Shown here: positions 46,613 through 47,797 of the stretch, piece by piece
How positions within the stretch are numbered: position 1 is the stretch's first letter
Layout of the letters: every line of letters starts with the position of its first letter
Source of the DNA: Escherichia coli
GTDB taxonomy: Bacteria; Pseudomonadota; Gammaproteobacteria; Enterobacterales; Enterobacteriaceae
Reading direction: 5' to 3' (one strand)
DNA: 64,000 nucleotides
NCBI RefSeq assembly: GCF_048403405.1
Contig: NZ_CP183129.1
Program-made: the position numbers and the translations under genes
The notes under the pieces: generated by a model
Database searches by the model: none
What the model saw: only the letters and a program-made list of their open reading frames with translations
Told to the model about the DNA's origin: nothing

Positions 46613-47797
46613 TTAATTTGCAGCTTCCTGACGATGAAAACCTCGCCACCAGACCAGTAAGTTAACCAGGGCAATCGTCGCGCCAGCCAGACAAACGCCA
46701 GCCCAACCGCCATGTTGCCAGGCTGAGGCTGAAATTAGCGAACCGGCGGCACCGCCAATAAAGTAGCTGGTCATGTATCCTGCGGTCAGGCGATTACGCG
46801 CATCAGGATGTATTCGATAAATTACCGTCTGGTTAGTGATATGCACGCCCTGTACGGTGAGATCCAGCACCAGGATGCCGATAATCAAGGCCAGTACGGA
46901 AGTGTGGCCAAACCAGATCGCCAGCCATGAAAGTAATAGCAGCAGCAGACCGAAAGTAGTGGTGTGGTGCGATTTACCCTTATCGGCAAAACCGCCCGCC
47001 GGACGAGCACCCAACGCTCCGGCAGCTCCCGCAAGTCCAAACAGACCAATTACACCATCGCTGTAGTTAAAAGGTGGAGCGGCAAGCAAAAAGGCCATTG
47101 AGGTCCAGAGAATGCTGAAGTTGGCAAAGGTCAGGCAGCCCAGCAACGCGCGGGTGCGCAGAATTTTATCGCTGATAAACATGCTGAAAACGGAACCAAG
47201 CAACTGTGGGTAGTTGAGGTGGGTTTCTGATTTCATTTGTGGCAGACCACGCCATAATGCCAGCGCCATCAGTGCCATTAACACCGAGGCAACCCAAAAG
47301 ACGGTGCGCCAGCCGCCGAGGTTTGCCAGCAACCCGGCAACGGTTCGTGCCAGCAAGATCCCCAACAGCAGCCCGCTCATAATGGTGCCGACCACTTTGC
47401 CGCGTTTATCCGGTGAAGCCAGCGTCGCTGCCAGCGGAACCAGAATTTGTGCCACGACTGAGAATAAACCGGTTAATGCCGTACCGAGGATCATCATCGC
47501 CAGTGACTGACTGCTGGCAGTAATTAACATGCCGCCTGCCGCCAGTAAGGTCATCGAGACAATCAGGCGGCGACGTTCAAACATATCACCGAGGGGAACA
47601 AGAAACAGCAGACCTGCGGCATAGCCCAACTGTGCGGCGGTAACAATAAAGCCTGCCGAACTGGCGGAAAGGGAAAAGTTACGCGCGATGGTGTCGAGCA
47701 ATGGCTGGGCGTAATAGTTACTGGCTACCGCCAGACCGGTGGCGATAGACATCAGCACGATCAGCGCCGGGCTAAGCTCATGATTAGGTTTAGTCAT
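46613..47797 (-). CDS. ygaY: MFS transporter YgaY, apparently intact (394 aa)
   Basis: MTKPNHELSPALIVLMSIATGLAVASNYYAQPLLDTIARNF..., uninterrupted 12-TM MFS ORF. Confidence 0.85.
   Translation of the reverse strand: MTKPNHELSPALIVLMSIATGLAVASNYYAQPLLDTIARNFSLSASSAGFIVTAAQLGYAAGLLFLVPLGDMFERRRLIVSMTLLAAGGMLITASSQSLAMMILGTALTGLFSVVAQILVPLAATLASPDKRGKVVGTIMSGLLLGILLARTVAGLLANLGGWRTVFWVASVLMALMALALWRGLPQMKSETHLNYPQLLGSVFSMFISDKILRTRALLGCLTFANFSILWTSMAFLLAAPPFNYSDGVIGLFGLAGAAGALGARPAGGFADKGKSHHTTTFGLLLLLLSWLAIWFGHTSVLALIIGILVLDLTVQGVHITNQTVIYRIHPDARNRLTAGYMTSYFIGGAAGSLISASAWQHGGWAGVCLAGATIALVNLLVWWRGFHRQEAAN

Follow-up and report, generated by a model that had tools for sequence, protein, structure and literature searches.

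The ygaY gene of the Escherichia coli DNA analysed here, a stretch of 64,000 nt called the window below, is very probably the ancestral allele of a YnfM-family transporter gene whose K-12 counterpart is a null form generated by slippage, and the intact protein is very probably a working proton-coupled transporter. According to the mechanism that we propose, slippage would have removed one of two tandem GGCGGCA copies (codons 85-90), shifting the frame within the third transmembrane helix (TM3), creating a stop at codon 89 and splitting the gene into the fragments once named 'ygaX' and 'ygaY'. Where the gene is whole, YgaY would be made and would operate as a secondary transporter coupled to protons and working by alternating access, most probably exporting a small organic solute. 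[quoted passage not shown]

The ygaY reading frame and its locus

A preliminary description, made from the letters of the window, had pointed to an uninterrupted ygaY frame of 394 codons at the position given in Table 1. The list of open reading frames and an identical 1185-bp RefSeq CDS in strain TUM14771 (WP_000165699.1, 'MFS transporter') bear this out, and we add that the gene lies on the minus strand. In the ORF listing, the frame begins at the first ATG following the upstream stop and ends with TAA. Genes are arranged on the minus strand in the order proW-proX-ygaY-ygaZ-ygaH-mprA, as they are in K-12; around ygaY of MG1655 the order reads proVWX-ygaY-ygaZH-mprA-emrAB. The gene occupies the same position as in MG1655 and its product shows no amino-acid difference from a repaired K-12 protein, which places it in the YgaY orthologue group (b2681).

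Of 5426 complete E. coli genomes, 5413 contain the gene at a DNA identity to the window of 96-100% (genomes below the 99% level are also given as 95-99%), and eight of the 5426 gave no ygaY match. A chance open reading frame is excluded by this distribution together with the fact that all 33 substitutions separating the window from K-12 are synonymous. The DNA allele of the window is rare: identity reaches 100% with TUM14771 only, and six genomes stand at 99% or above. The encoded protein is nevertheless identical to the repaired K-12 protein and to a protein cluster present on at least 1000 contigs.

Table 1. Features of the ygaY region in the window and further copies of the structured repeat (positions of copies in other loci refer to those loci)
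Feature	Position	Strand	Remarks
mprA/emrR	44806-45336	minus	
ygaH	45427-45762	minus	
ygaZ	45752-46489	minus	
Promoter-like TTAAGA-17-TATAAT	46516..46544	minus	ygaY-ygaZ spacer; found by scan
ygaY CDS, intact MFS transporter	46613..47797	minus	394 codons + TAA; ORF list, Pfam, RefSeq
Tandem 7-bp direct repeat GGCGGCA-GGCGGCA	47530..47543	minus	gene nt 255-268, codons 85-90, inside TM3
Presumed ygaY promoter and leader	47798..47889	minus	about 92 bp, nearly identical in K-12, AT-rich
Multi-copy structured element	47987..48191	minus	about 205 nt, 14 helices, unannotated; 59 nt after proX stop, 190 nt before ygaY ATG
AGGGAU hairpin loops of the element	48141-48136, 48113-48108	minus	
proX	48250-49284	minus	
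proW	49300-50364	minus	
Further element copy, L007	2501-2710		
Further element copy, L009	1539-1694		
Further element copies, L012	1258-1704		

The lesion of the K-12 allele

The preliminary description had taken the locus to be disrupted in K-12, and three sources agree: in NC_000913.3, ygaY (b2681) is an 1178-bp pseudogene, PGAP labels the gene of a K-12 derivative 'frameshifted', and the locus is still listed as '(ygaXY)' by Shimada et al. (2014, PMC3946193). When the window gene is aligned globally to that of MG1655, 40 columns differ, of which seven form one gap and 33 are substitutions. The sole indel is a 7-bp gap in K-12 at gene nt 255-261. It falls in a tandem direct repeat that reads TGCCGCCTGCCGCC on the plus strand: the window carries CT-GGCGGCA-GGCGGCA-TG where K-12 has CT-GGCGGCA-TG, one copy being gone. 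With both copies and an open frame, the window gene stands outside the K-12-type pseudogene, which has a single GGCGGCA. Replication slippage typically leaves a short tandem repeat one unit shorter, and from the sequence context we infer that the deletion arose in this way.

The MG1655 sequence translates as far as a stop at codon 89 (...MTLLAAC*), after which the remaining protein is encoded in another frame down to the same stop codon. The lesion sits in TM3, as located by a hydropathy peak at residue 87 and a helix spanning residues 75-94 in an AlphaFold2 (AF2) model, so the N-terminal K-12 product would keep just two complete helices. The early stop refutes the proposal that errors of sequencing or annotation created the 'pseudogene' and that the K-12 frame is intact as well; so does the recurrence of the identical 1178-bp form and junction in 353 complete genomes that were assembled independently, among them MG1655, C600, DH1, DH5alpha, J53, HMS174 and NCM3722. 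An artefact is thus exceedingly improbable.

Distribution, polarity and selection

The spread of the deletion was surveyed with a 100-nt probe spanning the K-12 junction, counted as present at a match of at least 99% in 5417 complete E. coli genomes. The junction occurs in 353 of them, and the other 5064 align over 107 nt, that is, with the additional 7 bp of the intact form. Of the 353 carriers, the best 60 belong without exception to K-12 laboratory strains, with several sublines represented (MG1655, C600, J53, DH1, DH5alpha, HMS174, NCM3722 and RR1). Some genomes outside K-12 match the probe at 100/107 positions (93.5%): their flanks are exactly those of K-12 and the 7 bp are present, which indicates that this allele is the one that suffered the deletion.

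Full-length orthologues of 393-394 aa and 93-98% identity are encountered in Shigella, E. fergusonii (98%), E. marmotae (98%), E. albertii (96%) and Citrobacter (93%), and tblastn against a phage collection, which includes a contig of Salmonella enterica subsp. houtenae, recovered from this contig a protein 90.9% identical, encoded between proX and mprA. Because the intact form is shared by these outgroups and most E. coli, it is the ancestral state and the norm, as the preliminary description had supposed for this strain. Slippage in a tandem repeat works both ways, and one could therefore regard the single-copy form as ancestral and the two-copy form as a derived, frame-restoring duplication of 7 bp. 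We give this polarity practically no credence: the single-copy form yields no full-length protein and, in the 60 carriers inspected, is restricted to one laboratory lineage, and the outgroup proteins (E. fergusonii, E. marmotae, E. albertii, Citrobacter and Salmonella) measure about 394 aa and can be aligned across the repeat region.

In the Salmonella houtenae locus (L135 3001-5220), the MarR-family gene mprA/emrR directly follows ygaY and ygaZH is absent between them, so the ygaZH valine-exporter pair is no constant neighbour of ygaY.

The 33 synonymous and zero nonsynonymous differences between the window and K-12 genes are distributed over approximately 310 synonymous and 872 nonsynonymous sites, and 33 random hits would leave the protein unchanged with a probability of about 6e-20. 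This pattern implies strong purifying selection along the lineages separating the two alleles, and it implies that the K-12 lesion must be recent. The raw synonymous divergence amounts to about 0.11. Judged by these comparisons, ygaY is an ordinary core gene that selection maintains in E. coli and its relatives, K-12 being the exception, and the lack of nonsynonymous change indirectly suggests that the intact allele may be functional.

Other disruptions of ygaY occur sporadically. In NZ_CM129877.1 (H40), 13% of the gene is left at 1112930-1113087, adjoining ygaH, and truncated or frame-shifted YgaY representatives with 91-100% identity were also collected (P0121-P0123, P0146, P0226, P0242, P0249 and P0270). 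Some of these non-K-12 disruptions may be assembly errors.

Protein family, fold and transport direction

Membership of YgaY in the MFS is established by Pfam MFS_1 (PF07690), which scores 142.2 bits against a gathering cutoff of 33.4 (E=2.6e-41). The full-length protein with twelve transmembrane helices that had been announced is found by three approaches. Twelve hydropathy peaks fall into two groups of six around a central loop (residues 17, 58, 87, 111, 148, 175 and 230, 258, 288, 309, 346, 373); an AF2 model computed from an alignment of 100 representatives of the clusters given below (35-55% identity) reaches a pLDDT of 95.3 and a pTM of 0.93; and MFS structures with 12 TM helices can be superposed on this model along its whole length. 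An exhaustive HMMER search assembled 1144 representative YgaY-related clusters at E<=1e-30.

Sequence searches of the PDB returned weak, partial matches, the best being the glucose symporter GlcP, and placement required a fold search. With Foldseek, the top PDB folds were SotB, MdfA and NorA, at TM-scores of 0.80-0.87 (0.84 for SotB/MdfA) over some 380-390 columns and with a sequence identity of 15-18%. Motif A is present in the TM2-TM3 loop as LGDMFERRRL (L69-G70-D71-M-F-E-R75-R76-R77-L), with two departures from the textbook G-x-x-x-D-R/K-x-G-R-R/K, M for R/K and E for G. Among 101 relatives, conservation reaches at least 90% for G70, 98% for D71, 99% for R151 (TM5), 92% for D272, 88% for D312 (TM10) and 97% for R336. 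TM5 was compared with motif C of the DHA1 drug:H+ antiporters (G-x8-G-x3-G-P-x2-G-G): glycines G133, G137, G142, G146 and G155 are each conserved in at least 85% of relatives, and the G-P step is absent, the conserved R151 being found instead.

Neither YgaY nor any of the 101 relatives scores above the cutoff of a curated NCBIfam model. The models of DHA1 (TC 2.A.1.2) remain below threshold, with 50.4 against 200.9 bits for TIGR00710 (Bcr/CflA), 38.1 against 479 for EmrD and 52.5 against 400 for Cmx/CmrA, and the strongest partial match is TIGR00895 (aromatic acid/H+ symport), with 78 bits over residues 20-187 and a cutoff of 418. With scores this low, homology gives YgaY no name at the level of a substrate. 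As cited in PMC5417439, TCDB lists the E. coli protein (P76628) under 2.A.1.36.3, within the YnfM (acriflavin-sensitivity) family; BLASTP agrees, aligning YgaY with YnfM at 26% identity over residues 1-390 (E=2e-20).

The DHA1-like fold, motif A, the membrane-embedded R151 and D312, the YnfM precedent and a neighbourhood of efflux genes (the ygaZH valine exporter and mprA-emrAB) together suggest an exporter, and export is the direction that we would predict from the similarity of the fold. The same protein could be read as a nutrient importer of the symporter type: the MFS fold leaves the direction of transport unfixed, and both the strongest NCBIfam partial match and the best PDB sequence match are symporters. 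We hold import to be unlikely, given that every one of the best structures matching at full length (SotB, MdfA and NorA) is an exporter or antiporter, that the characterized family member YnfM exports and that the neighbouring genes encode efflux systems. The gene neighbourhoods of two distant homologues (50-57% identity) share no conserved partner genes and give no hint of a function.

YnfM, the closest characterized relative of YgaY, has been described in BL21(DE3) as a CCCP-sensitive, proton-coupled exporter of glutarate and dicarboxylates, and apparently as the sole glutarate exporter of this strain (PMC12622518). The latter point argues against glutarate as a YgaY substrate, provided that ygaY is intact and expressed in BL21. 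For the export reading, YgaY may have a specific export function that has stayed hidden from K-12 work, for instance for organic acids or for some metabolite connected with the adjacent efflux genes ygaZH and emrAB.

Flanking sequences and expression

Scanning positions 46300-48400 for promoters and terminators disclosed no sigma-70-like promoter and no other convincing signal upstream of ygaY, and the approximately 92 bp preceding its ATG contain no obvious Shine-Dalgarno sequence. On the other side of the gene, the promoter-like site in the ygaY-ygaZ spacer has the same hexamers as the constitutive RpoD promoter that Shimada et al. (2014, PMC3946193) give for ygaZH, so that ygaZH is probably transcribed independently of ygaY.

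An intact frame need not be an expressed one. The gene might be silent, either repressed by H-NS or lacking a promoter, in which case the phenotype would equal that of K-12. The missing promoter-like and strong ribosome-binding sites and the AT-rich leader are compatible with silence, and in K-12, where H-NS/StpA-related effects were described at the locus and the gene was termed cryptic, an H-NS-mediated bridge to ygaY and a low, StpA-dependent transcript were reported (PMC10656529). A gene that is never expressed, however, would not accumulate synonymous changes exclusively, nor would full length and 91-98% protein identity have been held from Salmonella and Citrobacter to Escherichia. Moreover, genes silenced by H-NS are often expressed under particular conditions. 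We therefore attach little probability to a silent ygaY, and on the sequence evidence its permanent silence is unlikely.

A structured repeat in the proX-ygaY spacer

The spacer separating proX from ygaY measures 452 bp in the window (47798-48249) and 191 bp in K-12 (L001 5126-5316), some 340 bp of unrelated DNA replacing the REP/BIME-type element that follows proX in K-12. This spacer form is common to 547 of the 5426 complete E. coli genomes, and about 1430 others carry an 83%-identical core copy in the yegH-asmA spacer instead. The replacing DNA contains an unannotated structured element (Table 1) that recurs in 5425 of the 5426 genomes, at a median of three places and at up to ten. K-12 has three copies, one of them unannotated in the lysO-aqpZ spacer, and the element is also present in Klebsiella and Citrobacter. 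When a single genome of each species was scanned with a plain pattern, at least 120 element loci emerged in Citrobacter, Escherichia, Enterobacter, Klebsiella, Kluyvera, Pluralibacter, Pseudescherichia and Pseudocitrobacter, many as head-to-head pairs about 200 bp apart.

A consensus structure derived from 79 non-redundant copies comprises 69 pairs in 14 helices and is 91.9% paired, against 37-44% with slid partners. Changes on both sides affect 39 of the 69 pairs, and the covariation score of 0.31 compares with at most 0.08 in slid controls and was reached by none of 500 shuffles. RNAalifold favours the given strand (-158) over its complement (-141). Two terminal loops were compared in 70 copies: the first reads AUGGAU in 36, AGGGAU in 32 and AAGGAU in two, and the second AGGGAC, AGGGAU, AUGGAU, AUGGAC or ACGGAC. 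Both conform to A-N-GGA-Y with an invariant GGA, the second position often being G and not Y.

The element is intergenic in 90 of 93 copies and has no fixed orientation to its neighbours. In Citrobacter, two diverged copies often lie head-to-head about 200 bp apart (in L012, where they make up the segment listed in Table 1, and in L016, L021, L022, L057-L059, L066, L067 and others), and the copies in L027, L065 and L068 are split by another short repeat. The head-to-head pairs and the interrupted copies suggest past mobility, and the element behaves as an interspersed, probably once-mobile structured repeat.

Beside the element in the yegH-asmA spacer of ST131, a REP-derived sequence (L007 2760-2832) scores 33 bits with the Rfam family naRNA4 (CssrE), whose gathering score is 59.5. 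A role of the element as a dedicated ygaY leader was considered and rejected: it occupies many loci in both orientations and faces a convergent gene in the yegH-asmA spacer.

In Rfam, the window copy matches TwoAYGGAY (RF01731) with 28.2 bits and the yegH-asmA copy with 31.5 bits, both below the gathering score of 43, and other copies from K-12, Klebsiella and Citrobacter have no match at E<=0.1. Assignment to that family was rejected on account of these sub-threshold scores for two copies and of the lack of matches for the others. In the literature sources covered, neither the named intergenic repeats of E. coli (RSA, boxC, IRU and similar) nor the sequence of the element led to a name for it, and an older name is possible.

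The high-affinity consensus of CsrA is RUACARGGAUGU. The second hairpin of the window element reads UUACAGGGAUGU, which by its letters is close to this consensus. For the TwoAYGGAY motif itself, a proposal of CsrA binding exists (PMC4333381). The element may be a candidate CsrA-binding RNA or a MITE-like repeat and, as a candidate CsrA-binding module, it could act as a mobile sponge or as an insert in 3' or 5' untranslated regions.

Significance

The 7-bp slippage deletion can be used as a marker of the K-12 lineage. In the literature, ygaY of K-12 is widely treated as a 'pseudogene' where DNA can be integrated neutrally or whose deletion can serve as a control; this assumption of neutrality is specific to K-12 and is not valid for the B, W, C or wild strains in which the gene is intact. 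Functional genomics based on K-12 could not have assigned a function to YgaY.

The structured repeat is the only item at the ygaY locus that might merit more work. If it binds CsrA, it could put proVWX or ygaY under Csr control in the roughly 10% of E. coli genomes in which it occupies this spacer. Two bolder readings are a specific export function of YgaY hidden in K-12 and, the more novel of the two, an undescribed, possibly CsrA-binding family of structured RNAs in Enterobacteriaceae with one copy at proX-ygaY; at this strength, we consider them quite unlikely.

Comparison with known systems

The closest system is YgaY of E. coli K-12 (b2681; UniProt P76628; TC 2.A.1.36.3), which is the same gene in the same proX-ygaY-ygaZH-mprA locus. 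The K-12 gene differs in being 7 bp shorter and a pseudogene, and the remaining differences are silent.

YnfM (b1596; TC 2.A.1.36.1) is, like YgaY, a 12-TM MFS protein; the two align over their full length, including the motif-A aspartate and the TM5 arginine. They are nevertheless distant paralogues: YnfM has a length of 417 aa and a partner in the LysR regulator YnfL, whereas YgaY has no adjacent regulator.

The DHA1-type exporters SotB (6kkk/6kkl), MdfA (4zp0/6euq) and NorA (8ttf) superpose with the fold of YgaY and share with it a glycine-rich TM5 and motif A. They are set apart by the low sequence identity noted above and by DHA1 NCBIfam models that score YgaY far under their cutoffs.

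The structured repeat resembles TwoAYGGAY (RF01731) in its two adjacent A-N-GGA-Y hairpins enclosed in a multi-helix structure, and two of its copies match the full model below threshold. Unlike TwoAYGGAY, it lacks the long outer stem of the model, possesses an extra 3' hairpin and is interspersed in the genomes of Enterobacteriaceae.
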